Shown piece after piece: positions 10,729-26,606 of a DNA stretch of 64,000 bases; position 1 is the first letter of the stretch, and each line of letters begins with the position of its first letter. A program made the position numbers and the translations under genes. The notes beneath the pieces are model-generated. The model saw only the letters and a list, made by a program, of their open reading frames with translations, searched no databases and was not told where the DNA came from. Source of the DNA: a virus. The stretch covers positions 7,941 through 71,940 of IMG/VR virus record IMGVR_UViG_3300042389_001427. One strand, 5' to 3'.

Positions 10729-10737
10729 ATGATTCTC

Positions 10738-12201: not shown

Positions 12202-12504
12202 TCAATCTGTTTCTATGGCGAAACGGAGGGTTAACCAACTTGTGCCAACATTGGCATCAAATTGCTTGTATAGCCGATTCGAAATATCGATCCATTGGGG
12301 ATCGCTCCAATCGGCGAGCATGGTATCCGAATCCCAAGGCGACTCGGAGTCATCTTTGTCTTCTCGGATGAACTCAAAGTCATCCGGGGTCCAGGCCTCC
12401 AAGTAAACTTGCGGATACTTGTCCCGCAGTTTTTGCAAATCCCCGAAAAATGAGGATTGGCGTTTTGCTTTGGCGGGTTTCTTTTTACTTATCTTTTTAC
12501 TCAT
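12202..12504 (-). CDS. Hypothetical protein
   Basis: AGAAAGGA SD upstream of ATG. Confidence 0.7.
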   Translation of the reverse strand: MSKKISKKKPAKAKRQSSFFGDLQKLRDKYPQVYLEAWTPDDFEFIREDKDDSESPWDSDTMLADWSDPQWIDISNRLYKQFDANVGTSWLTLRFAIETD

Positions 12505-12516
12505 GGTTTCCTTTCT

Positions 12517-12834
12517 TTAGTTTAGTTCACGGATGATCCGCATCCGCTCGGCGAGTAGCCATTTCCCGCCTTGTGAGGCGGGCCTGGCATACTCGGTGAA
12601 TTGTTCCACCGACACTTCGCACCACACACGGCGCTCGCCGTTTCGTAGCTCCGTCTTGAGGTGTGGCGCTTCGGGGGTTGGGGCGCAATGCCACCCAGGG
12701 CGCACCGCAAAGCCCTTTGTCGGGTGATTCTCTGCCGGGAGCCACTCCCCGTAGGGAATGACTTGCTTGCGGTTGATGAAGAGCGGGCCAAGCGACCCGT
12801 CCCTGCGTTTGCGTAGAAGTTTATAAGCCGTCAT
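12517..12834 (-). CDS. Conserved phage hypothetical protein
   Basis: MTAYKLLRKRRDGSLGPLFIN...RPGWHC...SQGGKW; start moved to the ATG at 12834. Confidence 0.7.
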   Translation of the reverse strand: MTAYKLLRKRRDGSLGPLFINRKQVIPYGEWLPAENHPTKGFAVRPGWHCAPTPEAPHLKTELRNGERRVWCEVSVEQFTEYARPASQGGKWLLAERMRIIRELN

Positions 12835-12847
12835 ATAGGTTGCGGGG

Positions 12848-13555
12848 TTATGACTGCCAAACAACGAAGCCGTCTTGGCGGTCTTTCTTGGCGCGCCCCT
12901 TGGCCCGCAGACCGACGATCACGCCGCGCGGATCAAGGAAACGCAAATCGTGCGCGTCGCCATCCACTACATCCGTTCCAAGGTATTTCTCGGGCAGCCC
13001 GCCGCCGAATACTACCGCTACATTCCCGCCGCCCTCGATGGTCTGGCGCACCGCGCCATCATTGGATTCCGACCTGGAGAAAGTTAGCCGATAGTTTTTG
13101 GGCATTCCTCCCTGCAGGTATCGTGCCATACGATCCGGGTTTTTGGTGTAGTCGTAGAAAACAATGTCACCATGCCGCGACATTAAGTTCACTTTACGAT
13201 AGCCTCCGATAGCCTCCCAAGGGAGATCGCTGGTTCCGTTAAGGCGGATTGCGAGGCTCAATCCTGCGCGCTTCGCCTTGCGCTTTGCGGCCTCAATGCC
13301 CGTGTCGAGGAGTTCCACAAATTCCTTGGGGTCTTTATGGAACAACAGAGTTTTCTGCAAGCGGGCCGCTTGGGTTCGCTTAAAGGCGCCGCGCCCGGCC
13401 CAAAACAGGCAATCCGCCGCGCATCTTTCGGATGCGTGGGGGCATAGGTTGCGCCCCGACAAGTTGTGCGGGGACAGGTATAGAATCCCTGTGAGCCATC
13501 CGAGACTCTCGCCTTTGGTTGTTTTTGCGTTTTGGTATGTGATGAGTTCTTTCAT
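12848..13555 (-). CDS. GP88-family protein (Cys-triad, possible Fe-S)
   Basis: LCPHASERCAADC, IRLNGTSDLPWE, FYDYTK, LTFSRSE, DGDAHDLRFLD, GLRAKG; SD present. Confidence 0.85.
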   Translation of the reverse strand: MKELITYQNAKTTKGESLGWLTGILYLSPHNLSGRNLCPHASERCAADCLFWAGRGAFKRTQAARLQKTLLFHKDPKEFVELLDTGIEAAKRKAKRAGLSLAIRLNGTSDLPWEAIGGYRKVNLMSRHGDIVFYDYTKNPDRMARYLQGGMPKNYRLTFSRSESNDGAVRQTIEGGGNVAVVFGGGLPEKYLGTDVVDGDAHDLRFLDPRGVIVGLRAKGRAKKDRQDGFVVWQS

Positions 13556-13580
13556 AGTATTCCTTTCTTTTGGGTTAATT

Positions 13581-13796
13581 TTACCAGCGTGAATTTACAG
13601 CATCGGCTTGACGATCCGCCCAAACCGACGCGAGGCTTTTAAATTGCTCAAGTGCCGCCTCTTTGGACTCACCGTCTTCGATGTGTTCCATGATTTCAGT
13701 AATCGACCAGCACTCAACAATGACATCCCATCCACCGTCTCCGTAATGCTCCTTGGCGTGGTCATAAATAAAATTAGCGATCTGTTCTTTGTTCAT
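13581..13796 (-). CDS. Hypothetical protein
   Basis: Starts after the conserved leader module (MNKEQIANF). Confidence 0.7.
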   Translation of the reverse strand: MNKEQIANFIYDHAKEHYGDGGWDVIVECWSITEIMEHIEDGESKEAALEQFKSLASVWADRQADAVNSRW

Positions 13797-13866
13797 GTTA
13801 TTTCCTTTCTTGTTTGGGTTAATGTTCCGGGGGGAACAGGTTGTAAGGTTATTAACTAAATAAACT

Positions 13867-14070
13867 TTAGTCAAACCCTAAAACTCTCAAGTTATCTGCG
13901 TTGTTCCAATCGGTGTCCCAATCATTGGCGGTTCGCCAATACGGGGACCCCCATTGCTTGGATTCAATGCTCTTAGCCACCTTTTCATCGGCGGCTGCTT
14001 GGGACTTTGCTTCGACTTCGATTGTGCAATACGAAGACACAGTGACCGCAAGAGTAACCGGGTATTTCAT
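13867..14070 (-). CDS. Hypothetical protein
   Basis: ATGA overlap; GAAAGG SD. Confidence 0.6.
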   Translation of the reverse strand: MKYPVTLAVTVSSYCTIEVEAKSQAAADEKVAKSIESKQWGSPYWRTANDWDTDWNNADNLRVLGFD

Positions 14071-14351
14071 ATGAGTTCATACCTTTCATGTTGCCGCACC
14101 ATGAAATCGAAGTGAGCCCAAATCGCTTGGTTTATTCGCTCAAGCTCATCTTCGCCGGAGAGATACTGCCAAGTTGACAGGAAAAAATCGGTCAACTTCT
14201 CACAGATCGGCAAAGCCTCCATCTCATCAAGAGAAACATCGCTCCCTTGTTGATAATTCAGACCGATAATTTCATCGTCATTCACTTTAACAACGAGCAC
14301 ATATCGGTCGTGTCCTTGGCACCAGTGTATTTCTCTGCTTTGTATTTTCAT
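14067..14351 (-). CDS. Hypothetical protein
   Basis: ATGA overlap at 14348-14351; GGAGG upstream. Confidence 0.6.
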   Translation of the reverse strand: MKIQSREIHWCQGHDRYVLVVKVNDDEIIGLNYQQGSDVSLDEMEALPICEKLTDFFLSTWQYLSGEDELERINQAIWAHFDFMVRQHERYELI

Positions 14352-14617
14352 ACCGATGCCTTCCTCCCTTCTGCCTTGGCAATCGCTTTCTCCGCAATAG
14401 CAATCCAATCTCCATAGAGATTTTCGCCATCACAGTTTTCGCGCATGGCCGCCGCGAGGCGGGACAAAGCGTCGAGCATATCGGGGGCGGCCGAAATTAA
14501 ATCCCCGTTCCATGCGTCTTTGCGGTAAGTCAACATACAAATCGCTTTGTCATCGGGGCCCACTACCTTGCCCCAACCCAAAGCCCACGGGCCTTTTGAG
14601 TGTGTTTGTGTATCCAT
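14348..14617 (-). CDS. Phage early hypothetical protein (HxxGPW...LISAAPDML family)
   Basis: HSKGPW, LISAAPDMLDAL, AIAKAEG; SD. Confidence 0.75.
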   Translation of the reverse strand: MDTQTHSKGPWALGWGKVVGPDDKAICMLTYRKDAWNGDLISAAPDMLDALSRLAAAMRENCDGENLYGDWIAIAEKAIAKAEGRKASV

Positions 14618-14631
14618 AATTTAGTTCCTTT

Positions 14632-14868
14632 CTATTTTGAGTTTCGGGAGCGGACTGATATGCGGGCGATTTCGGCGTCTACCTGCCGAAAGAACGCCGC
14701 AATTTGTTTTTTGGTCGGCGCTGCGACGGCAATTAATATGTGCCGCCCATCCGGGGAATCGTATGCATGAAGTTGGGGGAACTTCCGGGCTGCCAGCATA
14801 AGCACCTCAATGTCGTGCGCCCCGATATCCGATATGGGGATCGCGTCTGCGATAGGGTTTTTTTTCAT
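14632..14868 (-). CDS. Hypothetical protein
   Basis: AAAGGA SD and a degenerate leader module. Confidence 0.6.
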   Translation of the reverse strand: MKKNPIADAIPISDIGAHDIEVLMLAARKFPQLHAYDSPDGRHILIAVAAPTKKQIAAFFRQVDAEIARISVRSRNSK

Positions 14869-14987
14869 TGTGTTTCCTTTCTTTGGTTTGGGTTTACGCC
14901 CTGGGGGAAATTAACTACCGATTTCGCATGAATTGGTAGTTCGTCGGTAGTTCGCAAATCAGATGTATCCGTTGAACGGATTTGCGA

Positions 14988-15506
14988 TTACGCCAACAAA
15001 TCGCTAGCACATCCTAAAAAGCTCCGACCTTTCGCACAGGCGATCATATCGGTTAGTGAATCGAATCGGAAGTCGCTTCGGTTCCGGCGTATGTAGCTCA
15101 ATCTTTCTCGGGTGTTGTAGCAGTCAGACCAGATGCGATCCGCTTCTTCCTGTTCGCGCTGGCAATACTTCTCCTCATCGAGAACCGGGTAATCGGAAAG
15201 GCTAGCGTGTATGCCTTGGGCGATCGGCATTTTGTCAGAACCCTCTCGAACCGAAAGGGCTTCCCACCAACCGCAAGCCCAGTGGCCGAAGCGGTCGATG
15301 GTAACATCCTCGCCCTCCCCTCCGAGTTCCTCCAAGGCTACGCTCCAATTGCTCTCGGTAAGAATGTCGGAGTCGCGGCTTCGTGTCATCACAACCCGCC
15401 AGCAATCCTCGGGGATTTCCCCCGCGTAGTTGCTTAACGAGTCAAACCCGCTGGGGTTTTTTATCACATCGGATAACTTCGGCAGTTCAATTTCATTCAG
15501 GTGCAT
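14988..15506 (-). CDS. Conserved phage hypothetical protein
   Basis: SRDSDILTESNW, RFGHWACGWWE, LSDYPVLDEE; SD before MHLNEI. Confidence 0.75.
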   Translation of the reverse strand: MHLNEIELPKLSDVIKNPSGFDSLSNYAGEIPEDCWRVVMTRSRDSDILTESNWSVALEELGGEGEDVTIDRFGHWACGWWEALSVREGSDKMPIAQGIHASLSDYPVLDEEKYCQREQEEADRIWSDCYNTRERLSYIRRNRSDFRFDSLTDMIACAKGRSFLGCASDLLA

Positions 15507-15696
15507 TTTCTTGGTTCCTTTCTTGTTGGATTTTGTTTTTGCAGACATTCACCAGCATCTCCTGCGTTATCTTGGTTCCGCAGCGAGAGGTGTAGTCCAC
15601 GGGTTCATCGGGGAATTCCGGCGTTGAGACTTTGATGCCATCGAATTGGACATCGAAGACTTCGCCCGCAATGCGTAAGGTTATAATTAGGTTCAT
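15493..15696 (-). CDS. Hypothetical protein
   Basis: ATGA overlap; GGAGG SD. Confidence 0.55.
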   Translation of the reverse strand: MNLIITLRIAGEVFDVQFDGIKVSTPEFPDEPVDYTSRCGTKITQEMLVNVCKNKIQQERNQENAPE

Positions 15697-16265
15697 GGGT
15701 TATTATTCCTCCCGCTCATAATCATCCATGTGTTCAGATCGAAGTCCGCAAAAGTGACGCCCGGATAGAGCTTCTTGATGCGGCGAATCGCTTTGGCTTC
15801 CAGCTGCGAATACAGCTTCGTGGCCTTACCCGGCGTCGTTCGCGGAACGCGCCTCATGCGGCACGATTCGCGCAGCCAACGCAAGAGATGGGTGTCGAGC
15901 ACCACATACTCCTGGGAAGGGCGCGAGTGCAGGAGAAACATCCGCGCCGTCTTGGGCCCCATGCCGGGTATGCAGAGCAACTCGTTGAGCGAGCACTTCT
16001 GCAAATCCAAATCCAAAACAGCGAGTGTCGTCGGGACTGTTCTTTGTTTATACGGGCCTAGCCCGACACGCCGCATCGACACCTCAACGCCGACTTCTTT
16101 GAGCCGCTGGAAGGGGCTCCCGCTGCCTAAATAAGTAAGCAGTTGGTTGATCTTCGCGGCGGCAATGTCGCTGCGCTTCCCGGCTACAGCGATACAGAAG
16201 AGCATGAACTCCTGTAGCTCGTCGTCCGTGCGCTCAAAGTTGGTCACGCTTGTCGGATCAATCAT
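15693..16265 (-). CDS. HhH DNA glycosylase/AP lyase (OGG2-like)
   Basis: HhH LLCIPGMGPKTARMF with catalytic Lys; VVLDTHLLRWL with catalytic Asp. Confidence 0.75.
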   Translation of the reverse strand: MIDPTSVTNFERTDDELQEFMLFCIAVAGKRSDIAAAKINQLLTYLGSGSPFQRLKEVGVEVSMRRVGLGPYKQRTVPTTLAVLDLDLQKCSLNELLCIPGMGPKTARMFLLHSRPSQEYVVLDTHLLRWLRESCRMRRVPRTTPGKATKLYSQLEAKAIRRIKKLYPGVTFADFDLNTWMIMSGRNNNP

Positions 16266-16854
16266 CGGACACCTCCGTCTCTTCAGAGAATTTCTTTCTT
16301 ATAGGAGTCCATTTGAATTTGTCTGAATACTCCCCGTGCCGAAACGATTCTTGCAGGTCTTTCGGCGCCTGCCGCGCCTCTTTGTATACTTTCTCTTGAG
16401 TGCCCTCAATTTTAGCAATTAAGCGCCCGATCCAGAATCCGCCTTCATCGGCGAAATCCAATTGCAAGTCGAAGCCGGTTCGTTCAGCCAATGTTTTAAT
16501 GATGGGGCGAGGGGGCTCCCATGCAGTGAAAAACCGCAACTCGGTCCAGTCTTCCCCTTCCCCGTTCTTATCAACCATGTAGCTATTCCACTTGGTTCCC
16601 CAATGGTGGACCGCCCAGCGATCCGCGCTCTCAAAGCCATACATTTTGAGGTTCTCGGCTAGCCTTTCGTTAAGCTCTGTTTTTCGCCGCTCGTCAAGCT
16701 GTATGTCGAGAGACAGATTTAGAGCATCGGGCAAGGGGACAATTTTGTTGAAGTCTAATATCTCGTTGCCGCCCTCAACAGTCATGTATCTTTGAAGAGG
16801 TCGGAGTGTTCCGCCGTCGAGGCGGGTCAATATGTTTAGCGTATTGTTTGGCAT
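16258..16854 (-). CDS. DUF1281/YubB ferredoxin-like domain protein
   Basis: MPN start, LDFNKIVPLP, WAVHHWGTKWN, FFTAWEPP, FADEG. Confidence 0.8.
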   Translation of the reverse strand: MPNNTLNILTRLDGGTLRPLQRYMTVEGGNEILDFNKIVPLPDALNLSLDIQLDERRKTELNERLAENLKMYGFESADRWAVHHWGTKWNSYMVDKNGEGEDWTELRFFTAWEPPRPIIKTLAERTGFDLQLDFADEGGFWIGRLIAKIEGTQEKVYKEARQAPKDLQESFRHGEYSDKFKWTPIRKKFSEETEVSDD

Positions 16855-16899
16855 AGGTTATTTTTCCTTTCTTGTTGGTTGTTTAGATTCAAACAGCGA

Positions 16900-17310
16900 T
16901 TACTTGGCTAACATCGCAAGGCGCTCGATCAGAGCGTTCTTGGCATCTTCAAGGGTCACATTTTTTCTGTTGTCTCTGCAGCTATACCCATAATCGAGGT
17001 CGAAAGACCCGTCCTCATGGGATGAAACGCGGAGCTTTCCAGAGTAGCGAGCCATAATTTCGACAGAAATAATCGCGTCCCTATGAATCCAAGCGCCAAC
17101 GAGGTATGGGTCTTTCGGCCTAATGCTTATTATAGGCCACTCGGATTTTTCTTTGGCGGGCAAGTCGGCGACCTCCTCGATTAGTTGTTTAATAGGGGCA
17201 AAGACGCGGATACGGGCCTCCTGGTCGGCGCGTTGCTTGGCTTTCTTTAAATCCTCCTCTGCTCGGACTGCGTTTTGTTTTGCTTTGATGAGTTCAATTG
17301 TTGCGTTCAT
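16900..17310 (-). CDS. Hypothetical protein
   Basis: Follows the conserved leader module. Confidence 0.7.
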   Translation of the reverse strand: MNATIELIKAKQNAVRAEEDLKKAKQRADQEARIRVFAPIKQLIEEVADLPAKEKSEWPIISIRPKDPYLVGAWIHRDAIISVEIMARYSGKLRVSSHEDGSFDLDYGYSCRDNRKNVTLEDAKNALIERLAMLAK

Positions 17311-17370
17311 ATGTATTATCCTTTCTTGTTTGGGTTAAGCGTTCCGGGGGGAACGAATGGCAGCTATCCG

Positions 17371-17682
17371 TCACACGACGTCCCCGACATAGACTTGGCG
17401 TCTGTAGAAGTTGGCGTCCCCGAAGAGTTCGCGGTCGCTAATTTTGCCGAGGGCTTCGATCGACTCCGCCAAGCTCTTGGCCAAGCTCTTGTCTTCCTCA
17501 CTCTCGTAACAATCCCAGAGGCTCTCGGCATCGGGTTTTTGTCGTTTGAAGGTTAGGATGTGGATGCAATACGCCTCGTCCTTGCAGCCCCATATCTCGG
17601 GATTGAGCGGATGGATATATACCATCCTGTCTCTCATGCCGCTGCGTTGGATTGCTTCTCGTATTTTGTTTTGTAGTTTCAT
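17371..17682 (-). CDS. Hypothetical protein
   Basis: Follows the conserved leader module. Confidence 0.7.
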   Translation of the reverse strand: MKLQNKIREAIQRSGMRDRMVYIHPLNPEIWGCKDEAYCIHILTFKRQKPDAESLWDCYESEEDKSLAKSLAESIEALGKISDRELFGDANFYRRQVYVGDVV

Positions 17683-17765
17683 TGGTCGGTTTTCCTTTCT
17701 TGTTTGGGTTATGTTCTGGGGGGAACTGGGGGCTATCCGTTTAACGGATTACCCGCTCCGCTACT

Positions 17766-19223
17766 TCATAAACCCGGAAGAATAGTAGGGGGTTGCGGGG
17801 TTATGACACGCGGGCGGCGGTAGCGGGCGAGTCGAATGTCCGATTCGTTGAACATTTGAATATACGCCATCGCCATGTCGTGGGCACGGGCATCGCGCCC
17901 GTGGCGGGCCTTGGCTCGGAACTTCTTGAGAACCCAGCGAAGCACATCGGGGGCCCCGACGGCGGCCCATCGGGCGAAGTCCATCCACGCAAACCGGGAA
18001 TTGTCGTTCCTAATAAGCGGAGGGTTCTGCAACCAATGCGGGACAGGTGGGTTGTCGTATCCTTCGCGGCGGCATTCCGGGTTTGTGAAGCCGCCGGGTG
18101 TCGGGACGGCAACGACTTGCGGGCAGGCCGCTCGGAGTTCAGGCGTAGAGTGGCCGTGATAAGTCTCGGAAAACTCGGCCCAACGGGCCATGGCTTTCAT
18201 AAACTCCGAACGCTGGAACCACTCTTTCGAGTTGCGGGTCGGCCCCCAAAGCCGAATTTCCACAGTCCCGAAGTCATCCCACTTGTTAGCCGATATCGCG
18301 GCAAACTTATGGCGTTTCGCCAATCGCCATTCGCGCTGCGTAGCATCGACAGCGGTGTGACGGTGGTTGCGGCGGGTGTAGGTTTCCAAGTAACGGAACC
18401 AAGACAAGTGGTAGCGGAACGCAAAGTATGTGCGCTGCCCGATCCACTCATCCTTCTTGCAGTTGAGGTGGATGTGCCCACCATTCCGCGACCCAGGCCC
18501 CAAGCGTATAACTCGCTTGCACGCCAAGTTCGGCAAAGTGCCCTTGATTCGGAAACGAATCTCGGGCTGGCCGCCTCCATCATAGCCGCACTTCCAATAC
18601 TCGCGATCGATGCGGGCCACTCGGGTTTGGTAGTTGGCCCGCGAACACTCCAACTCTCCGCTGCACTCATAGAGCGGGAGGCGCAGGTAATACGGCTCCT
18701 CTTCCAAGGGCTTGGGGGCCTTTGTTTCGATGTAAGTCCTCTCCGTATTTCGGAGGAACTCCCCGACTTGCTTCCGCAAATCGAGCGGCTTGGTGCCGGC
18801 AAGCCAACTCCGAAGTTGAACAAATGTGTAGTCGCTCTTGGGGTGCCCCCAACAAGAGGCCATGAACTGATCGAGAAGTTCGCTCAACTTCCAGGATTTT
18901 CCCATGAAGTGGCTTGCGTATCGCCGTCCGCGCGCCGCCGAAACCACCAAGCGGGCCAAGGCCGTTCTGCTTTTGATTTTGCTCGGCTCTTGGGTGTCCC
19001 AACGCGCGCGGTGGCGCTTGACGGCTTTGCCGATGATCGCCCGCTCCTCGCGCTCAAGACCTCTGTAATACGGAATCGCAAAAAGATCGATCTCGTCAGG
19101 GTTGACATGGTTCTTGCTCAAAACCTGCTGCACTTCCCAATAACAGATTTTGAACCGATCGCTCACGCCGGGTATGGGTTGGTTGACAACTTCGATCAAT
19201 GATTTGTTTTGTAATACTGACAT
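17766..19223 (-). CDS. Putative amidoligase (COOH-NH2 ligase family)
   Basis: GELEC, YDGGG..EIR, GGHIHLN, KFAAIS, GTVEIRLWGPT; adjacent to a class-II GATase. Confidence 0.7.
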   Translation of the reverse strand: MSVLQNKSLIEVVNQPIPGVSDRFKICYWEVQQVLSKNHVNPDEIDLFAIPYYRGLEREERAIIGKAVKRHRARWDTQEPSKIKSRTALARLVVSAARGRRYASHFMGKSWKLSELLDQFMASCWGHPKSDYTFVQLRSWLAGTKPLDLRKQVGEFLRNTERTYIETKAPKPLEEEPYYLRLPLYECSGELECSRANYQTRVARIDREYWKCGYDGGGQPEIRFRIKGTLPNLACKRVIRLGPGSRNGGHIHLNCKKDEWIGQRTYFAFRYHLSWFRYLETYTRRNHRHTAVDATQREWRLAKRHKFAAISANKWDDFGTVEIRLWGPTRNSKEWFQRSEFMKAMARWAEFSETYHGHSTPELRAACPQVVAVPTPGGFTNPECRREGYDNPPVPHWLQNPPLIRNDNSRFAWMDFARWAAVGAPDVLRWVLKKFRAKARHGRDARAHDMAMAYIQMFNESDIRLARYRRPRVITPQPPTILPGL

Positions 19224-19295
19224 AGGTTATTTTCCTTTCGTTTGGTTTGGGTTTATGTTCCGAGGGGAACGAAGGGTTGAAATCCGTTGAACGGA

Positions 19296-20306
19296 TTAAT
19301 CAATGATGAGGCCGGAGTGTGACTTGGCTGCGGGATCGTAGTCGGGAAACGACTCGGCGGTTTGCGCGGAGGTTGTTTCGAGAGAGGCGCCGTCCCAATC
19401 GTCATCGAACTCCGCCTGGGTCATCGGACTGGAATGCCACTTGCGCCCGCCGTAAGAGCGAAAGCTGTCCGAGCAGCCCCCACCATTGTGGTTGATCTTG
19501 TAGCCGAGCGAACGCTGGGCGTAGCTTGCCTGCTTTGCGGTTGTTGCGCGGTGTGTCCACACCGAGACATCGGGGTCACCGCCGCGCGGCTTGAACTCCA
19601 ACCAAGTCCAAGCATCGAGCTTGTAAGCAATGAAGTTCTTGCAGCGCCAAGCCTCCCCCACGGCTTCCACAATATGCTCGGTTGTGCCGAACACCCACCG
19701 CCCCTTGGTGGTCACCGCGCCGTATAGCGAAGCGGTGTCATCCACGGCAACGATGAGGCGCCCATCCGGGGCGGCGGCGAGAAACGCGGCGTAGCCCGAG
19801 ATGTTTTCGAGTGCCTCCTTCTGCTGCTCGACGGAGTTGTGATCCGTGAAGCAGTATAAGAGATGTTGAGAGTCACAAGTCGCGGACTTGTGCTCATCGG
19901 TCTGCGCCCCGTTCCAACTCACGACGCCGTTGTGGGCGAGCGTCCATCCCTTGTGCCGGAATGGATGCGTGTTGTGCAGATCGATGCCGCAAGTGGCAGT
20001 CCTGCCGTGTGCGATGAGCGGTTTGTTCTTCGAGTAACGCCCTGTCTGCTCGGCGTGGGACGCCGCGCGGAACGCATCGAAGCCCCCACGGGAAAGGCGG
20101 CGGAGAAGCGGGAGCTCCTCCATGCCCTTGAAGTCATTGGGCTCCACGAAGCGGGCGTGGAGAGCGGATGCGCCGGGTTGCGCGAATCCGAACCCATCCT
20201 GCTGGGTCGGGGTTATTACTTTAGCCGCCGCACAAAGAGCGCGGTTGGCTGCGGGTTTGTTCAGGGGCAGTTGGTTGGACGATGTCCAGGCCATAAGTTT
20301 GCACAT
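19296..20306 (-). CDS. Class II (Ntn) glutamine amidotransferase
   Basis: Cys2 nucleophile (MCKL), QQDGFG, AHGRTAT, NTHPF, LAHNGVV, TCDS. Confidence 0.9.
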   Translation of the reverse strand: MCKLMAWTSSNQLPLNKPAANRALCAAAKVITPTQQDGFGFAQPGASALHARFVEPNDFKGMEELPLLRRLSRGGFDAFRAASHAEQTGRYSKNKPLIAHGRTATCGIDLHNTHPFRHKGWTLAHNGVVSWNGAQTDEHKSATCDSQHLLYCFTDHNSVEQQKEALENISGYAAFLAAAPDGRLIVAVDDTASLYGAVTTKGRWVFGTTEHIVEAVGEAWRCKNFIAYKLDAWTWLEFKPRGGDPDVSVWTHRATTAKQASYAQRSLGYKINHNGGGCSDSFRSYGGRKWHSSPMTQAEFDDDWDGASLETTSAQTAESFPDYDPAAKSHSGLIID

Positions 20307-20372
20307 ATGTATTTTTCCTTTCGTTTTTGTTTTGGTTTATGTTCCGAGGGGGAACAAAGGGTTGTTATCCGT

Positions 20373-20504
20373 TCAACGGATAGCGGCGAGGATTGCCTCA
20401 AGAATTGCGGCGGCCAGCCCTAAAAGGCTGGTCACGAAAATCACTCCAAGCACTGCAAAGAGCGGGAGAATCGCTTCAGCGATGTCGTTGTCGTCGAGTT
20501 TCAT
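20373..20504 (-). CDS. Small membrane peptide (43 aa; not in ORF track)
   Basis: MKLDDNDIAEAILPLFAVLGVIFVTSLLGLAAAILEAILAAIR*; lies between two palindromes, stop TGA inside one. Confidence 0.6.
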   Translation of the reverse strand: MKLDDNDIAEAILPLFAVLGVIFVTSLLGLAAAILEAILAAIR

Positions 20505-20517
20505 AGGTTGTTATCCG

Positions 20518-21078
20518 TTAAACGGATAAGGCGAGTTGCAGTTGATTCGGGTTCTCTTCTGGGGATTCGTAGAGCAGTTCAATCTCGCTCACCTCGTCCC
20601 AAGTCCACGACCCTGCGCCGATGGAGTAGACCTTCACCGGCACACCATCGACGTGGATGATGCTACCTTGCGTCGAGTCTTCCTCCTCGCCGTCGAGAAC
20701 GACCCACGAGAAAGTGTCCGTGGCTTCGTCGTAGCGGTATTTGGCATCGGTCGCCTTGAGGATCTTCTCCGCGTTCTCCTTGTCGAAGACGGGCATCGCC
20801 CATCCGTTCCAGAGAAAGCCCATCGTGTAGCCATCCGCGCAAAAGAACGGATCGTCTTCGTCCATCATCTCGATGGAGAAGCGGCCCTTGCGGTGGGGCG
20901 GGTTGTAGTTGAGTTCTTCTTCCGTCGCGGGACGGAAGTCCTCGTTGAAACGCTTCAAGTCCGCGATGTGGCGGACAAAGCCGCCGCCGGAGCGGTAGAA
21001 GGTTCCTGCTTCAGTATCAACTTCGATGGAGTCTTTGGGATAAGTTCCTCCACGAAGGACGTAGGTTTTTGCTGACAT
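20518..21078 (-). CDS. Hypothetical protein
   Basis: WNGWAMPVF, YSIGAGSWTW; leader module upstream; stop inside the palindrome. Confidence 0.75.
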   Translation of the reverse strand: MSAKTYVLRGGTYPKDSIEVDTEAGTFYRSGGGFVRHIADLKRFNEDFRPATEEELNYNPPHRKGRFSIEMMDEDDPFFCADGYTMGFLWNGWAMPVFDKENAEKILKATDAKYRYDEATDTFSWVVLDGEEEDSTQGSIIHVDGVPVKVYSIGAGSWTWDEVSEIELLYESPEENPNQLQLALSV

Positions 21079-21160
21079 AGGTTATTTCCTTTCTTTTTTG
21101 GGTTGATGTTCTTGGGGGAACAAGGGGTTGAATCCGTTGAACGGATATGTGGTGGCGCGG

Positions 21161-21385
21161 TTATGATAGATGATAGGATTCTACTTCTCCATGCTCCCGC
21201 GCGATGTAGTCGAGGGCGGAGCGGATTGCGGCTTGCGCCTCCGCATCGGACAAGTCGTCGCACGATCCATCGGTCATGCAACACCATCCGTTCTTGTCCG
21301 CAGCCCACAACGCGGCTAGCGGGTCACGAAGCGCGCCGCGATCCCGCAAGGGAATCCGTTGAACGGATTCGGGTAGCCTTTCCAT
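21161..21385 (-). CDS. Hypothetical protein
   Basis: AAAGGAGG SD; contains a palindrome copy near its 5' end. Confidence 0.55.
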   Translation of the reverse strand: MERLPESVQRIPLRDRGALRDPLAALWAADKNGWCCMTDGSCDDLSDAEAQAAIRSALDYIAREHGEVESYHLS

Positions 21386-21566
21386 GTTTTCCTCCTTTCT
21401 GGTTGAACCAATTCGGGAAGTGCCCGAAATCTCGGGGTTCCGTCACATTGGCGTTTTTTCCACAGACACCACACTTCCCGTAGTGCCAACAGGAAACCGC
21501 GCGGCGGAAGCCCGTTCCATGCTTCACGCCGCACGGATCACAAGTCCACGATGGGTATGCACTCAT
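21324..21566 (-). CDS. Small zinc-finger protein
   Basis: CDPCG...CGVCG, VTEPRDFG; ATGA overlap. Confidence 0.6.
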   Translation of the reverse strand: MSAYPSWTCDPCGVKHGTGFRRAVSCWHYGKCGVCGKNANVTEPRDFGHFPNWFNQKGGKHGKATRIRSTDSLAGSRRAS

Positions 21567-21820
21567 GTTGAGATGTATCGATTCCATAGATCGGGGTGCT
21601 TATCGAACAACTCCCAAGGGTTACACGCCGCCCATAGCTCCTCATGGAGCCGCGCCATGTGGGAGGTAGCCTCCTCACTCAAAGGGGAGCCCTCCCAAAC
21701 GATGTCTCTCGGATCGTCGTCCAAGTGATACTGCCTTTGGCGCTCCGCAAGCCAATACAGGTAAGCAACCGCGTCATCCTCGGATTGAACCCGAAGACTC
21801 GCCAATGTTTGATCGCTCAT
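21563..21820 (-). CDS. Hypothetical protein
   Basis: ATGA overlap; YHLDDDP. Confidence 0.6.
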   Translation of the reverse strand: MSDQTLASLRVQSEDDAVAYLYWLAERQRQYHLDDDPRDIVWEGSPLSEEATSHMARLHEELWAACNPWELFDKHPDLWNRYIST

Positions 21821-22119
21821 CCCAATTTCACGCGGCATGGCGCATCGTTTGAGTTGGTGAGCCATTTCTTGAACTCCCAAGCGGAGAGTTTAAGTGTGAA
21901 CTTCGTCCCCCCATCGGGTTCAAGCAGGGACAGCTTCACGCCACATTCCACGCCGCTGAACCCGGTGTGAACCATCTTCGCTTCGATGGTTCCGTATTGC
22001 TCCCCTCGGGGATCATCCGCCACCCACTTTTGGGTGAAGTATTTTTGGAGTAGCGCCTCTATATCTGCCTTCTGGCATTCCTGTCGGGTTTGGACAGGGG
22101 TTTTCTCTAATTGGATCAT
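21817..22119 (-). CDS. Hypothetical protein
   Basis: Leader module then MIQLEK. Confidence 0.65.
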   Translation of the reverse strand: MIQLEKTPVQTRQECQKADIEALLQKYFTQKWVADDPRGEQYGTIEAKMVHTGFSGVECGVKLSLLEPDGGTKFTLKLSAWEFKKWLTNSNDAPCRVKLG

Positions 22120-22173
22120 GGTTATTTTTCCTTTCTTTTTTGCTGGGTTATGTTCTGGAGGGAACAAATCCGT

Positions 22174-22389
22174 TCAACGGATACCGACAACCTGGATTCG
22201 GGTTGGCGACCACTCGCTCTCATGGGCGGCTTGGATTCCGCCGATGCGAACGAGGGCTTCCGACATGGTTCGGTAGTATTCCTTCCGCCCTTTGTTCGGG
22301 GCGGAATGAGTTCCATACACAAGAACCCAACCGAGCCGATCGGAGGGTTCGACTTGCGCCCAAAAATTGGGCAAGTTTATTTTAAACAT
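22174..22389 (-). CDS. Hypothetical protein
   Basis: Leader module; stop TGA inside the palindrome. Confidence 0.65.
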   Translation of the reverse strand: MFKINLPNFWAQVEPSDRLGWVLVYGTHSAPNKGRKEYYRTMSEALVRIGGIQAAHESEWSPTRIQVVGIR

Positions 22390-22440
22390 GGGTTATTTCC
22401 TTTCTTGTTTGGGTTGGTGTTCCGGGGGGAACGAATCCGT

Positions 22441-22563
22441 TCAACGGATATCGCAAATCCAATTGGTGATGAGCACCACATTGAGCGTGATGAGCACCGA
22501 GAGGATGAACAGGAGGACGAAGAACTTCTCCTTCTCCTCCTCAAGATTGAGTTTCTTTTTCAT
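22441..22563 (-). CDS. Small membrane peptide (40 aa; not in ORF track)
   Basis: MKKKLNLEEEKEKFFVLLFILSVLITLNVVLITNWICDIR*; stop inside the palindrome. Confidence 0.6.
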   Translation of the reverse strand: MKKKLNLEEEKEKFFVLLFILSVLITLNVVLITNWICDIR

Positions 22564-22580
22564 ACGGGGTTGCAAGGTTA

Positions 22581-22811
22581 TTATCTGTCGAAATCCGCAA
22601 GCGCAAGAGCAAACGGATTGTGTGTCAATGCGGCGGGCTGCGGGGTTCGCGGAGCGGGCGTGTCAAGTAGATTGACAACCTCGCCGCGCCCGCGCCAATT
22701 GCGGGGATCGCCCTCGAACTTGTAGCCGAGCATTGCTTCGCGGCTCAAGTCCTCATTGAGCCTGTTTGTGATCACCACATGGAGGTGGCGGATTTTCTGT
22801 GGGTTTTTCAT
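22581..22811 (-). CDS. Hypothetical protein
   Basis: Leader module upstream. Confidence 0.55.
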   Translation of the reverse strand: MKNPQKIRHLHVVITNRLNEDLSREAMLGYKFEGDPRNWRGRGEVVNLLDTPAPRTPQPAALTHNPFALALADFDR

Positions 22812-22879
22812 TTGTCTTTTTCCTTTCGTTTTTTGTTTCGGGTTATGTTCCGGGGGGAACGAATCCGTTCAACGGATAA

Positions 22880-23266
22880 TCAATAAATGTTGTGGTGGTT
22901 GTAGCACATCTTCTGAAGCGCACGGAGAGCCGAGGGGAGCGACGATCCATTATTAAACGCGAAGTCGAACTTCTCCTCTTCACTCATAGTGTCAAAGATC
23001 GCCCTTGCGGCGCGGGAGCCTTCCTCCTCATCGATGAGTTTGGGATCGCAAACCCTCTCTTGAATCTCTTCTTTTGTGGAAGGCGCAAGAAGCCCATCGA
23101 AGGCTTTGATCTTATCGAAATCCCGAAGGATGGAATCCAATGCGGGCTTGTGTTCCTCCCAAATTCCATCCCTACAAAGCTCAATTGTCGTAACAATTCG
23201 AGCGACCGCGTTGAGAGTTTGGGAGGCGTTTCTTAAAGCTGCCCGTAGTTCTGTCGTAGTAGTCAT
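22880..23266 (-). CDS. Hypothetical protein
   Basis: Bounded by palindromes at 23275 and 22863. Confidence 0.65.
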   Translation of the reverse strand: MTTTTELRAALRNASQTLNAVARIVTTIELCRDGIWEEHKPALDSILRDFDKIKAFDGLLAPSTKEEIQERVCDPKLIDEEEGSRAARAIFDTMSEEEKFDFAFNNGSSLPSALRALQKMCYNHHNIY

Positions 23267-23375
23267 ATGAAGTTATCCGTTTAACGGATTCGATTGTGAT
23301 ATGGATTGAAGTGGCGTGGTGCGCGAAGCGGGTAGGACGCCTCACGCATCACTTGGTTTTTATCCGTTCAACGGA

Positions 23376-23885
23376 TTACTTGCGGCTCGCGGCGTTATCG
23401 GCGCGGAGTTGCTTGAGAGCGCGATGGAGAACGGCGATTGCCATGTCCTTGGACATATTCGGGAGGGTGATCCCCTTGCCTTTCTTCACCTGTGCAACAA
23501 GTGATTCGGCGTGTTTCTGTGCCGCCTTGCTTTTGGCGGAGGAGTCCTTCTCCTTACGGCGCAATCCGTATTTGAGGAACAGATCGCTAATCCGTTGTGG
23601 CGTGAAGCCCGCATCTTCCAAGGCTTTCTGGATGTTCTCAATCTTTGCGCCCTGTTCAATCGCCTTAACGGCTTCCGCCTTGATCACGCCGATCTCTTCG
23701 TATGCCGCTTGAAGGATGTTTTCGTTCATCGCGATGCGATCGGCAATCCTCATTTCCGCCTTGGAAATGCCTTTGCTCTTCTTCGGGGTGAATTGAAGAT
23801 TCGGAACGGCGATTCCGTATGCTTCCTTTGTCTCGAAGAGAGAAGTGGCGATTGCGATTGCGTTGGTTTGTGCTGTCTTTTTCAT
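23376..23885 (-). CDS. Basic Lys/Ala-rich hypothetical protein, first gene of the early operon
   Basis: Bounded by palindromes at 23903 and 23362; possible DNA-binding protein. Confidence 0.7.
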   Translation of the reverse strand: MKKTAQTNAIAIATSLFETKEAYGIAVPNLQFTPKKSKGISKAEMRIADRIAMNENILQAAYEEIGVIKAEAVKAIEQGAKIENIQKALEDAGFTPQRISDLFLKYGLRRKEKDSSAKSKAAQKHAESLVAQVKKGKGITLPNMSKDMAIAVLHRALKQLRADNAASRK

Positions 23886-24030
23886 TGTTGTTTACTTTCT
23901 AAATCCGTTGAACGGATACCTGCATTTTTGTTTTGTTGTCGGCGGGCATGATTCCCGCTTCCAAAAATAAAGTGTCCGCCTTGCCTGTTTCCCTTGTGAA
24001 AATAGGTTTTGCGGTTATTATTTTTTCATC

Positions 24031-24540
24031 ATGGGAAGACTCGAAATTGCGGCGGATTGGCAAGCTATTCGTTCACTCTACTTGGATGGGGCAACCTATA
24101 GGGAATTGGGGGAAAAATTCGGAGTGAAGGAAGGCACGATAAAGGCAAGGGCGAATCGCGAAGGGTGGAGTAAAATCCCCGTAAGGCACAGAAACGCAAC
24201 GATTAGAAGCGTGAACAAGGAAAGTGCGGGAATAGCTCAAGAACTATGGTCAGATCGTAGGGAAAAGGTTAGGAATCAAGAGTTTGCGATAGCTTCCAAG
24301 ATATTGACATATGCCGAACAAATGAATGAAGATCAACTACTTGCGAAAGTAGACAAGATCAAAGTGGGAGCGGACATGGCAAGGCGGGCAAGTGGCTTGG
24401 ATAAAGAGGATAGCAACAAAAATGCTGTGAACATTGCGATCCTCTCGGATATTGATGGAATGTCAACGCCGGGAATAGTTTACGAAAAACAACCGAACCA
24501 AGGAGATTTGGAACAAACAGGTGACAAACTCGGTTTGTGA
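24031..24540 (+). CDS. terS: Terminase small subunit-like HTH protein
   Basis: DWQAIRSLYLDGATYRELGEKFGVKEGTIKARANREGW N-terminal HTH typical of TerS. Confidence 0.7.
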   Translation: MGRLEIAADWQAIRSLYLDGATYRELGEKFGVKEGTIKARANREGWSKIPVRHRNATIRSVNKESAGIAQELWSDRREKVRNQEFAIASKILTYAEQMNEDQLLAKVDKIKVGADMARRASGLDKEDSNKNAVNIAILSDIDGMSTPGIVYEKQPNQGDLEQTGDKLGL

Positions 24541-24678
24541 GGGTAAAACTACGGGTTTTGAATCTGTAAGCCCTACCACCCCATCCACTACTGTCCCCTC
24601 CCACCAACAACCTGACCAGCCAGAATTATAATATCATGCATTACAAATTTTTTTTCCTTTTTTGGGGGTTAATAACGA

Positions 24679-24903
24679 ATGACTCTATGGCTTGGCTCCG
24701 CTGAAGGAAGGCGTCCATACCGGAAGTGCTTTAAGAGGGCGTATAAAACTCTGGAATCCGCTAGAAAGTTTTGCGCCAGTTTCTGGCTGCGGGAGGGTCG
24801 CAATCAATGGGTGTATCGCTGCCCCAGGTGTGGGGCCTGGCACACAACTTCCAAGTCGATAGATGAGCAAATCAAAAAAGGATTGAGCACGACATTGAAG
24901 TAG
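24679..24903 (+). CDS. Small zinc-finger protein
   Basis: KCFKRAYKT...VYRCPRCGAWHTTS. Confidence 0.6.
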   Translation: MTLWLGSAEGRRPYRKCFKRAYKTLESARKFCASFWLREGRNQWVYRCPRCGAWHTTSKSIDEQIKKGLSTTLK

Positions 24904-24918
24904 GTTATTATAATTCGC

Positions 24919-24989
24919 TGCGGGGAGGAGACGGCTCTCCGGTCTGTCTCATAAGCAGACTTTTGAGGGTTCGACTCCCTCCCCCGCTA
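24919..24989 (+). tRNA. tRNA-Met(CAT), atypical, CCA not encoded
   Basis: Acceptor TGCGGGG/CCCCGCT; anticodon arm TCTGT-CTCATAA-GCAGA; T arm GAGGG-TTCGACT-CCCTC; short D arm. Confidence 0.8.
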
Positions 24990-25002
24990 AAGCAAGTAGC
25001 AC

Positions 25003-25197
25003 ATGAGTCTTCGATACGAGCAATACTGGGCCTTGAGGAAAACGAGAACTCTACTCTACGAGTTGCTCGACCCTAAGAAGCGCCCTAAAACAATCAAAGA
25101 GTTGCGCCAGCGGGTTAGGAGTTGCACCAAACACTTCCCCCTACTAATGCCCAACGGAAGACCGATCTGGTCGCAAGATGAATTTACCGAAGATTGA
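25003..25197 (+). CDS. Conserved phage hypothetical protein
   Basis: MSLRYEQYWAL...RSCTKHFP. Confidence 0.65.
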   Translation: MSLRYEQYWALRKTRTLLYELLDPKKRPKTIKELRQRVRSCTKHFPLLMPNGRPIWSQDEFTED

Positions 25198-25222
25198 CCG
25201 GTGTTGCTGGGCATTAAAATTT

Positions 25223-25395
25223 CCGCATTGAGCAGGTAGGATTACCAGATGACTCCGTATGGAGCACATCGAGGTCGGGAGGCGGTCTACAGAACCGGGC
25301 GCGACCCGGGGAGCCGAGTCCCAACGCGGGGCGTAAACCTTGGAAACCCGATACCTGAAAAGGCAGCGCGCAGCCGTCCTCAATGCGGCTTTTTT
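25223..25395 (+). ncRNA. Candidate structured ncRNA
   Basis: Nested helices CCGCATTGAG/CTCAATGCGG, CAGGTA/TACCTG, GACTC/GAGTC, GGTCG/CGACC; followed by a T6 run. Confidence 0.45.
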
Positions 25396-25404
25396 ATTGC
25401 TGCG

Positions 25405-25820
25405 ACGGGAACTTCCCTGTTTTATAAGTTCCCATACAAGTTCCCACAAACTAAACACATGAATTGGAGTCACTAAACCCTTGAAGGGAACTTGGGAACT
25501 TCCCCCTGTGTTCCTTTCTTCAATAGAAAAAATATATATATAGGAGTAGCGCACAATACCGGACACAAGCGATTCCCCGAATTCCCAGTTCCCAAGTTCC
25601 CGTTTAAAAGTAAAATATTCAGCGTCATTTGTTTAACATGGGGGAATTGCCCCGAAAACGCCAGTTCCGCAGAATGCTAGTTCCTCTCGGGCAGTTCCTG
25701 CGGGCAGGGATGACGCGGGCGCCAATAATTAACTCGCCCGTTAGTTTACTTGCGCCCTCTCCGATTTATACCCGATTTATGCCGGTTTATACTAATTTAT
25801 GCCGGTTTATACCCTAACTC
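25405..25820. other. Candidate replication origin or packaging-site region
   Basis: Clustered GTTCCC/GGGAAC repeats in both orientations, AT tract aaaaatatatatata, ~10-bp TTTATRCC tandem repeats. Confidence 0.5.
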
Positions 25821-26082
25821 GCCGTTTTCGGGTTCGTATTGTCGATGTAGAGGGGGTTGCTGACTGAAATCGGGGGGCAACTGTCGGATTTCGACACTTG
25901 AGCACAAATCCACTGGCGCGATTCGTGATTCGCGAATGGCGTTTCAAGAGGTAGGACTTTTTGTAGGATGTCCTGCGATGTGTGCAACTATAGTTGGCAG
26001 ATTTGCGGGAAAAACGCCAATCTGGAAACTATAGTGAGTTTAGCCTAAACTCGGATAAACTTGTTATAATTGGGGGGTGAGC

Positions 26083-26397
26083 TTATAACTCAAAGCCCCC
26101 CGGCTCGATTTGATAGGCTTTTCGAACTTTATCCCACGCTTGTCGATCGCAAGGATCGCCTAAAGGTTTACTTCCAGGGATTCTTTCAGCCTCTCGATAC
26201 GCCTCCTCCAACTCGCGCCTGATCGCGGCCTTTGAATGGCCGTCCAAAATAGGGTATATTTTAGCCAACCGTCTAGCGAAGTCGGGGGTCGCTGCGGTTC
26301 TGCGCCCAAGGAAGTATCTAAAGCTCCAGAACACGAGATCGGACACTCCGTTGAACTGGTCCAGTATTAGTTTGTCGTCTCTAGTTATTTTCTTCAT
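26083..26397 (-). CDS. Hypothetical protein
   Basis: WSFRYFLGRRT, LGDPCD..W; start at MKKITRDD. Confidence 0.65.
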   Translation of the reverse strand: MKKITRDDKLILDQFNGVSDLVFWSFRYFLGRRTAATPDFARRLAKIYPILDGHSKAAIRRELEEAYREAERIPGSKPLGDPCDRQAWDKVRKAYQIEPGGFEL

Positions 26398-26414
26398 AGT
26401 TATTTTCTTCGTGG

Positions 26415-26600
26415 TTATTTTTTGTAGGGAGGTTGTTCCGGGTGTGGCGTTGAAACCGGCCCCGAAGCAGTCCACCGCGTCGAAGACAATTCATCAAATC
26501 GGCGACTCCACTCGTCGCGATCGATTTTTCCGCTGGCGTAAAGCCAGTCGATTTTCGACTGTTCTTCCATTCTTACTGTCTTAGGTTTGTCGTTTTGCAT
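26415..26600 (-). CDS. Hypothetical protein
   Basis: ORF in operon context. Confidence 0.5.
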   Translation of the reverse strand: MQNDKPKTVRMEEQSKIDWLYASGKIDRDEWSRRFDELSSTRWTASGPVSTPHPEQPPYKK

Positions 26601-26606
26601 TGGTTT

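Follow-up and report, generated by a model that had tools for sequence, protein, structure and literature searches.

The window analysed here is a stretch of 64,000 nucleotides (nt) of viral DNA, bases 7941-71940 of the 71,940-bp virus record IMGVR_UViG_3300042389_001427, the ends of which overlap by 127 bp. Within it, a 15-bp palindrome, ATCCGTT-N-AACGGAT, recurs at the gene junctions of a single 9-kb accessory block, and the first gene of this block, gene1, stands between two of the copies. The palindrome is likely to be a protein-binding DNA site, and gene1 is modestly favoured as the gene that encodes its binder. The best explanation is that the palindrome would serve as a double-stranded DNA operator read by a homodimer of the gene1 protein. 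Once accumulated, this protein would occupy all 13 sites and limit transcription into and through the block, with the first site providing autoregulation of gene1 and the junction sites acting as transcription roadblocks, and the outcome could be early shut-off or prophage silencing. The operator set would comprise one site upstream of the gene1 start, one over its stop and eleven at downstream junctions. Taken whole, repression included, this statement is in our judgement evenly balanced between right and wrong.

The palindrome array and its counterparts in relatives

A motif scan of the window found 13 copies of the palindrome with no mismatch in the arms, and none was found in 100 dinucleotide-preserving shuffles. 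The array is confined to 14967-23917, and a scan of the whole genome (71,940 bp) returned the same 13 copies only. An earlier reading made from the sequence alone (the sequence-only reading) had described 13 copies with invariant 7-bp arms, all four centre bases and confinement to a 9-kb region, and all of this is borne out. On the minus strand, in ascending coordinate, the centre bases are C, A, C, G, T, C, C, G, G, G, A, G and C. Because a scan allowing up to two mismatches added a single near-chance site (at 9600, two mismatches; 0.28 expected by chance), the array has no degenerate copies. A DNA-binding protein that acts as a dimer would be expected to select just such arms, invariant and symmetric about a free centre. 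Isolated half-sites (ATCCGTT or AACGGAT) are also concentrated in the block, which holds 5 of the genome's 11 (at 20802, 20846, 21286, 22612 and 23590) where about 1.4 would be expected from its share; these may be what is left of earlier sites.

The genes of the block, which we assume to be early genes, lie on the minus strand with the palindromes at their junctions. Twelve of the 13 palindromes are intergenic or overlap a stop codon, and one stands upstream of the first gene. The stop of an open reading frame (ORF) of at least 40 codons falls from 14 nt upstream of the palindrome to inside it in 10 of the 13 copies. The stops that had been read inside the palindrome at 20373, 22174 and 22441 (ATC CGT TGA) and at 20518 (GTT TAA) were confirmed, as were the edge overlaps at 19296 and 23376, where the final A of TAA is the palindrome's first A. 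The placement at gene boundaries, read for 12 of the 13 copies, was likewise borne out, with P7 inside the overlap of two ORFs. The centre of P7 is C, which yields no stop in either overlapping frame; the centre base thus varies freely and is exploited by coding sequence. The distance from palindrome to ATG ranges from 8 to 98 nt, and several copies lie only 8-13 nt before an ATG. The sites, in the order of transcription and with ORF lengths in amino acids (aa) or codons, are:

P13, 23903-23917: opens the array, 17 nt before the gene1 ATG, in the divergent stretch towards the helix-turn-helix (HTH) gene at 24031
P12, 23362-23376: first A is the final base of the gene1 TAA
P11, 23275-23289: a 22-codon mini-ORF ends inside (ATC CGT TAA); ATG of a 128-aa gene 8 nt downstream
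P10, 22863-22877: 2 nt past the stop of the 128-aa gene; hairpin-leader module (see below) follows
P9, 22435-22449: contains the TGA stop of a 44-aa hydrophobic ORF; module follows
P8, 22168-22182: contains the TGA stop of a 71-aa ORF; module follows
P7, 21354-21368: in the overlap of an 87-codon Zn-finger ORF (21324-21587) and a 74-codon ORF (21161-21385)
P6, 21132-21146: 14 nt past a stop; module follows; one end of a 767-bp contig skip
P5, 20513-20527: contains the TAA stop of a 186-aa ORF; next ATG 8 nt downstream
P4, 20367-20381: contains the TGA stop of a 43-aa hydrophobic ORF; module follows; other end of the 767-bp skip
P3, 19282-19296: first A is the final base of the TAA of a 336-aa amidotransferase-like gene; module follows
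P2, 17735-17749: 16 nt past the stop of a 485-aa gene; module follows
P1, 14967-14981: last palindrome, 6 nt past the stop of a 186-aa gene at 14988-15548

The two hydrophobic, membrane-like ORFs of 43-44 aa (20373-20504 and 22441-22575, minus strand) both end in -IR* inside a palindrome. In the segment 14900-14966, downstream of P1, GAACTACC is present as direct repeats, along with an 8-bp inverted repeat (ACTACCGA...TCGGTAGT), and contigs from run X3 diverge at 14912 and 14955.

Relatives of the window's genome (G000) were recovered from IMG/VR and metagenomes by profiles of the HTH protein and the DUF5906 helicase, the L-numbered loci being those fetched with the helicase profile (n=37). 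Their core proteins are 40-75% identical, and the stretch from the helicase to a conserved 88-aa gene is hypervariable. With a palindrome family defined as at least three perfect palindromes, 15 of the 37 helicase loci carry one, always downstream of the helicase; these are 15 of the 24 loci that have at least about 4 kb of downstream sequence, while 13 of the 22 negative loci have less than 3.3 kb. All seven complete or near-complete genomes carry a palindrome of their own, confined to 2-9 kb, with shuffle expectations of 0-0.4. The copies number 13 in G000, 4+3 in G001, 8 in G005, 8 in G006, 8 plus 1 outlier in G007, 4 in G008 and 8 in G009. A cross-scan of the types showed that each genome holds almost solely its own, and a scan for the G004 palindrome gave matches only in G004 itself. 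The types include:

L199: GTCAGA-N3-TCTGAC
L204: GTCCGTTAACGGAC
L205: GTCCGGAATTCCGGAC
L208: GTCCG-N5-6-CGGAC
L209: GTCGGAATTCCGAC
L210: ATCAGA-N4-TCTGAT
L212: CTCAAC-N4-GTTGAG
L215 and L229: AGTCGCAAACGCGACT
L218: GTTCG-N4-CGAAC
G001: GTTTAAG-N5-CTTAAAC and CTGTTA-N5-TAACAG
G004: TAGTCCGTA-R-ACCGACTA

A TCCG...CGGA core is common to several of these and the window's motif, and the centres range from 0 to 6 nt. Among 80 palindromes at 13 loci, 48 have an ORF stop from 40 nt upstream to inside the palindrome, and only 6 lie solely inside a long, mechanically called ORF. Asymmetric centres occur in both orientations relative to the one transcribed strand (ATCAC and GTGAT in L208; ATCT and AGAT, ATTC and GAAT in L212), and the imperfect G004 palindrome also occurs in both orientations, 19 of its 20 positions being identical when reversed. 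Such two-way versions argue for recognition as double-stranded DNA and are ill-suited to an RNA signal.

In many relatives, the second and third palindromes are separated by tandem GAACCAT heptads and a conserved non-coding stretch that reads ...GTTCCATCCGCTTGCGTTG...CTTGCC-N6-GGCAAG.... Its similarity survives a 1-nt indel, so conservation is at the nucleotide level, and possible identities of the stretch are a small RNA, a promoter and an origin-like element. The window's 72 nt between P12 and P11 are a diverged counterpart. The positions in relatives are:

L204: 7317-7360
L205: 14821-14945
L208: about 14230-14374
L215: 9223-9336
L229: 14254-14374
G004: about 10790-10830

Gene1 and the palindrome type

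Gene1 (23376-23885, minus strand) encodes a 169-aa helical protein with an HTH-like core (AGFTPQRISDLFLKYG) and is the proposed source of the palindrome-binding dimer. It is flanked by one palindrome 17 nt before its ATG and by one that overlaps its stop. An ORF of 126-169 aa between consecutive lineage palindromes was likewise found in L204, L208, L230, L199, L210, L212, L218, L221 and L223 as well as G000, and the same layout in G004 brings the total to 11 loci. In L205, L215 and L229 the lineage palindrome follows the gene1 stop, so that a palindrome follows gene1 in 14 loci in all. A multi-operator system had been one of two proposals in the sequence-only reading and is now the best-supported one, with the evidence favouring the 23376-23885 protein, which had been named only as one to test.

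The conserved gene1 core in the window's group is L-x3-G-[FYW]-x-[PK]-Q-x-[IV]-S-x-L-x3-YG, which, judged by its sequence pattern and by the models, looks like a helix-turn-helix. Half-site and helix covary: QRIS(D/E)L occurs with TCCG (G000, L204, L208) and KQD(V/I)xR with TCGC (L215, L229). In seven of seven close gene1 homologues, 79-92% identical overall, FTPQRISDLFLKYGLRR is invariant. A gene1 profile reached 51 cluster representatives at E<=0.001 among 1.84 billion. A two-copy model of the protein passed its controls (score 0.76 vs 0.00 for the best control). Of 30 proteins whose solved structures are pairs of one chain, 20 reached the mark applied, as did 1 of 23 whose solved structures are single chains. 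At least 66% of contacts are common to the runs, the predicted local distance difference test score (pLDDT) of the partner is at least 71, and helix 96-105 lies mostly outside the modelled interface. The gene1 protein is predicted on these grounds to form a homodimer, and we infer that it binds DNA and has a repressive effect.

A natural allele swap links the palindrome type to gene1. Genomes G005 (locus L210) and G006 (locus L212) are 94-97% identical upstream of the gene1 cassette, have nothing in common across it, and are 86% identical after it; overall they are mosaic, with 74-97% identity where alignable. The palindrome type follows gene1: G005 has 8 ATCAGA copies and 1 CTCAAC copy, and G006 has 8 CTCAAC and 2 ATCAGA copies. 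At orthologous junctions, with flanks about 94% identical, each genome keeps the palindrome of its own type, and clean indels of 15-22 nt leave the non-cognate one absent or shortened. The non-cognate copies look like decaying relics, and the pattern is the one expected if a site is maintained for only as long as its binder is there. Directly observed are the sites and their restriction to the block, the pattern across the family, and the way the palindrome covaries with gene1 alleles.

The same pair of genomes bears on whether the sites are operators for another phage protein, either a ribbon-helix-helix (RHH) protein or the YjcR-like HTH protein, with gene1 merely the first regulated gene. 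RHH proteins bind short repeats, and the genes at 38543-38746 and 38957-39247, which had been put forward as candidate binders, do encode RHH domains according to Pfam (RHH_3 E 1.4e-5 and RHH_1 E 8e-6). The evidence nevertheless points away from them, because in G005 and G006 the palindromes are wholly different while RHH_B is identical at 93 of 96 residues and the RHH_A domain is nearly identical. The HTH gene is divergent and beside the first palindrome in G000, G004, G007, G008 and G009, and in G004 a palindrome lies 24 nt from its start codon; on the other side, it is far from the array in G001, G002, G005 and G006, and across the palindrome switch its protein is identical at 151 of 175 residues, with two changes in the recognition helix. 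The HTH protein (24031-24540) is the weaker candidate binder, and it is altogether distinctly unlikely that the sites are operators for it or for an RHH protein.

Several points weigh against gene1 as the reader of the palindrome. Nine of the 24 relatives with sufficient flank show no repeated perfect palindrome, and L205 has none upstream of gene1. A Pfam search gave 0 credible matches for 10 gene1 proteins and 10 homologues, and no PHROG family was found. Confidence in the gene1 model is moderate (pLDDT 64.5 and 70); Foldseek gave no match of the model to DNA-binding folds at E<=0.001, and a VIA structure search returned generic helices only (best Z 6.7), so the HTH comes solely from a sequence pattern and model helices. 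The proteins at the gene1 position fall into at least two groups that are barely alignable (hhalign probability 22%), and those of G001 and L210 have similar helices and different half-sites. Alignment of G005 with G006 covers only about 42 of 72 kb, and the two differ at many other places, so a gene other than gene1 could be the true determinant. As RNA, the palindrome forms a hairpin (6 bp, 3-nt loop) in 10 of 10 folds. That the effect would be repression rather than activation is a guess.

A further idea, which we regard as speculative and fairly unlikely, is that gene1 acts with its palindrome as a "barcode" that evolves rapidly. In a single family of lake phages, more than 10 specificities would define mutually blind regulatory or immunity groups and mark cassette joints; after an allele swap, cognate 17-22-bp units would be gained and non-cognate ones excised, so that the regulator would promote the spread of sites for itself and, through this, a modular evolution of the array.

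A second repeat, cassette turnover and the phage genome

The block contains a second repeat that the sequence-only reading had missed. This hairpin-leader module consists of a GTTCC-N4-5-GGAACA hairpin and a CA-rich leader with AAGAAAGGAA before an ATG (hairpin, then ATAACCCAAACAAGAAAGGAAA, then ATG). It lies 2-11 nt downstream of the palindrome in seven copies, and an eighth has no palindrome. All are on the minus strand:

22846-22860: hairpin GTTCCCCCCGGAACA, followed by the CA-rich leader with AAGAAAGGAA and an ATG
22418-22432: hairpin-leader module
22151-22165: module GTTCCCTCCAGAACA, identical sequence present in relative G001
21107-21121: hairpin-leader module
20340-20355: hairpin-leader module
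19256-19270: hairpin-leader module
17712-17726: hairpin-leader module
13823-13837: hairpin-leader module, no palindrome upstream

The module differs among its copies while the palindrome arms never do (13 of 13 invariant), which places the palindrome under much stricter sequence constraint. The GTTCC hairpin also occurs in distant relatives with other palindromes (1 copy in G001, 2 in G002, 1 in several loci) and is for that reason independent of the gene1 allele. It resembles the G009 palindrome TGTTCG-N4-CGAACA.

The palindrome might instead act in RNA, as an mRNA hairpin after stop codons that gives a signal for processing, stabilisation or translational control. This signal might be read by an RNA-binding protein specific to the lineage, which could still be the gene1 protein. 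Besides the consistent folding noted above, the abutment on stop codons in 10 of 13 copies suits this reading, as does the second hairpin with its leader, since a cut between the two could give mRNAs capped by a hairpin at both ends. On the other hand, the palindrome hairpin is weak (about -5.5 kcal/mol alone, z-scores mostly 0 to -2.6), the arms are without variation, neither compensatory nor G-U changes being seen, and positions 7 and 9, in the would-be loop, are still invariant and complementary. The asymmetric variants that occur in both orientations in relatives would give different RNAs, and some relatives have A/T-rich arms (GTTTAAG) or a palindrome with no centre. A search of 10000-27000 against Rfam found no family apart from a tRNA, and none in the palindrome block. 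An RNA-level element is on balance unlikely. Nor is the palindrome a simple terminator, because no terminator-like U-tract follows it; terminator-like sites number 29 vs 26.8 expected.

The repeats would also serve as places where homologous or illegitimate recombination gains, loses and exchanges cassettes, because 13 palindromes and 8 modules provide short identical junction sequences. Metagenomic contigs from other samples were compared over 10000-28000 where they cover it, each joint resting on one contig with 30-43 nt on its shorter side. A contig from run X7 skips the 767 bp between the edges of P4 and P6; in run X6, one contig skips 5,532 bp by joining two copies of the shared leader and another carries a rearrangement that breaks inside P10; and the swapped cassette of G005 and G006 is bounded by palindromes. 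A fourth contig event (13890-14113) lies away from any repeat. The breakpoint comparison lends weak support to the earlier idea of palindromes as recombination joints, and the contigs and the swap support cassette turnover at repeats of the kind described for the promoter-stem-loop elements (PeSLs) of T4-type phages.

A stronger version would have the palindromes as dedicated recombination sites or mobile units, resembling attC, repetitive extragenic palindromic (REP) or miniature inverted-repeat transposable (MITE) elements, at which a site-specific enzyme, for instance the tyrosine recombinase, would take up, remove or spread cassettes of one gene. The layout, with a site at each cassette 3' end plus one "head" site, is in keeping with it, as are the joints just described and the coming and going of palindromes as clean 15-22-nt units. 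However, tyrosine-recombinase cores have an overlap region of 6-8 bp and attC is a long imperfect structure, and a 15-bp perfect palindrome with a 1-nt centre (0-6 in relatives) resembles neither. The integrase-like gene (39301-40551; phrog_1, E 1.5e-21) lies 15 kb from the array, and its product is identical at 359 of 430 residues in G005 and G006 despite the change of palindrome. No transposase or HUH domain was found in cassette ORFs, the joints rest on single contigs with short sides, and ordinary recombination also breaks at short repeats, hairpin-prone palindromes being deletion-prone. Capture by the tyrosine recombinase, as had been proposed, does not fit a site of this anatomy with no recombinase beside the array; dedicated sites are very unlikely, and cassette gain and loss is probably ordinary recombination rather than integrase-driven capture.

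As to host promoters, no excess of sigma-70-like promoters (11 promoter-like sites vs 12.2 expected, with a consensus that may not be the host's) or of terminators was found. The palindrome is not a host promoter, because it lies 8-13 nt before some ATGs, its sequence is lineage-specific and there is no promoter excess. A sigma-70 reading of TTGAAC at the palindrome centre was rejected, since its spacing to a -10-like hexamer varies by 2-11 nt and the -10 candidates are poor. Promoters specific to the phage are another matter, either N4-type hairpins for an injected virion RNA polymerase or sites for a phage activator. N4 early promoters are a small number of hairpins whose stems are 5-7 bp long and whose 3-nt loops have a purine in the middle, and the 6-bp stem and 3-nt loop here resemble them; a 3,761-aa virion protein is encoded at the end of the structural operon, and one palindrome precedes gene1, before which no sigma-70-like promoter was found. 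In contrast, the virion protein has no match in Pfam or, as single sequence or three-sequence profile, in the PDB, and it lacks the Rx3Kx6-7YG motif and has HExxH instead. Moreover, the loop centre takes any base, some relatives have no loop or centres of 5-6 nt, and several copies stand only 8-13 nt before an ATG. We rate phage promoters as the least probable of the alternatives considered. The virion protein is phrog_22602 (genome bases 4845-16130; window 1-8190 holds its last 2,729 codons), and it is 32-36% identical in relatives, where it has 3,800-4,000 aa, with an invariant LHELxH near residue 1735.

Silencing in the lysogen, as had been suggested for the operator set, has a real integrase-like gene in its favour and the species-genome scan against it. 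That scan gave 55 single palindrome matches, about the chance number, and no prophage copy; several matches fall in conserved coding sequences of Acidobacteriota and other phyla. In IMG/VR, ATCCGTT-N-AACGGAT gave only single chance copies among the matches listed, and the palindrome with GTTCC gave three chance matches. Locus searches with single proteins (the 485-aa protein and the HTH protein) found no relatives. A metagenome protein scan found relatives at 42-44% identity among the matches listed, and a 69-kb metagenomic contig encodes HTH and gene1 proteins 85% identical to those of G000.

The genome has a plus-strand arm that runs from the large terminase through the structural genes to the virion protein. 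The minus-strand arm begins with the integrase-like gene, the two RHH genes, a helicase with DUF2800 and a family-A DNA polymerase, and continues with a C5 methylase, a primase, the DUF5906 helicase and a dCMP deaminase. There follow a small plus-strand island (HTH gene, Zn-ribbon ORF, tRNA-Met), the palindrome block and further small genes. The features of the island include:

24031-24540, plus strand: YjcR-like HTH gene, divergent, 169 aa, with a sigma-70 region-4-like or terminase-small-subunit-like HTH
24919-24989, plus strand: tRNA-Met (anticodon CAT), in the island between the replication genes and the palindrome block

Most public runs that contain the stretch are metagenomes from lakes or fresh water; none is listed as RNA, and for one labelled RNA-Seq that nature is a guess. 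GenBank phages gave no nucleotide match and no match to the capsid candidate, and the closest DNA polymerases of cultured phages, those of Rhizobium phages, are only 27% identical. The phage family is one of about 72 kb from lake and freshwater metagenomes, with a virion protein of 3,700-4,000 aa and without a cultured relative. Its most conserved gene seen is that of the 88-aa DUF5754 protein (10462-10728, minus strand), which is 83-90% identical across relatives where other proteins are 40-75%. The sequence CCTAGG is wholly absent from the 72-kb G000. The C5 cytosine methylase of G000 (30132-31940) has no counterpart in G001, G002 and G004, in which CCCTAGGG occurs 28, 16 and 8 times, with about 1 expected.

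Significance and known systems

If the gene1 protein binds the palindromes, it would define a new family of small phage regulators without a Pfam family. More than 10 natural pairs of protein and operator, with a common architecture and differing half-sites and spacing, would offer a test of how DNA-binding specificity evolves. The pairs would also help to test how a phage places all of an accessory block under a single control and how regulatory repeats shape cassette exchange, and they could supply orthogonal repressor-operator parts.

The stoperators of cluster A mycobacteriophages, bound by L5 gp71, are described as one short site in many copies, some at promoters and the majority in short intergenic spaces (PMC9283540, PMC4557955). 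They are reported to block both initiation and elongation, with specificities that diversify among related phages (PMC9283540, PMC4557955, PMC6550527). Each site is described as a 13-mer without symmetry that a monomer binds and whose orientation follows that of transcription (PMC9283540). The array described here shares with them the many copies of a short site in intergenic spaces and the one site upstream of the first gene. It differs in that stoperators are asymmetric, in one orientation and genome-wide, whereas the sites here are perfect 7-N-7 dyads, found in both orientations in relatives and confined to one 9-kb block. Repressors of the L5 gp71 kind have an HTH and a stoperator domain; for the candidate regulator, gene1, no similarity to any Pfam or PHROG family was found, and it is a predicted homodimer.

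The sites of the phiC31 repressor are 17-bp "CIR" inverted repeats, and this temperate phage, like the family described here, would have many inverted-repeat repressor sites in intergenic regions. By description, phiC31 is set apart by a repressor that is larger, has isoforms and is encoded elsewhere in the genome. For phiC31 and L5, 18-30 dispersed repressor sites are described (PMC4557955).

PeSLs of T4-type phages are described as short repeats that flank ORFans in hyperplastic regions, are lineage-specific and mark breakpoints (PMC4122927, PMC2839356). Here, too, repeats flank variable ORFans and mark the breakpoints of indels and replacements between close relatives. PeSLs, however, combine an early promoter with a terminator stem-loop of variable stem, whereas the palindrome is invariant, co-varies with an adjacent gene and has no host-type promoter by a test that is weak because the consensus may not be the host's.

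In cluster K mycobacteriophages, the start-associated sequences (SAS) are described as conserved 13-bp elements 3-9 bp upstream of start codons at 13-19 genes, where they reach past the ribosome-binding site, with a role given as unclear. An inverted repeat also lies upstream of some of these genes, and the extended form (ESAS) is described as spanning about 50 bp, in which 12-14 bp separate imperfect repeats of 17 bp and a putative SigA promoter is contained (PMC11373665). The AAGAAAGGAA leader resembles SAS and the palindrome resembles the ESAS repeat. The palindrome differs from the latter in being 15 bp and perfect, in having no promoter, in abutting stops and in its variable distance to the leader.

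In integrons, each cassette has an attC site at its 3' end, in which its stop codon may fall, and the array begins with a first site of another kind. The palindrome resembles attC in its position at cassette 3' ends, in the stops it may hold and in its distinct head site. However, there is no integron integrase beside the array, the neighbour being the HTH gene. Whereas attC sites are long, imperfect palindromes that recombine as single strands in folded form, the palindrome is perfect and 15 bp long, and none of these defining features was seen here. N4-type promoters are set apart by the 13 copies with any centre base and by centres of 0-6 nt in relatives.

In summary, the closest systems by this comparison are, in function, the multi-site repressors of cluster A mycobacteriophages and phiC31, in evolutionary role the PeSLs, and in layout SAS/ESAS. 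Because its sites are symmetric and independent of orientation, are confined to one block, carry no promoter and have a new candidate regulator, the array would be a variant of the multi-operator kind that stands outside any named family.

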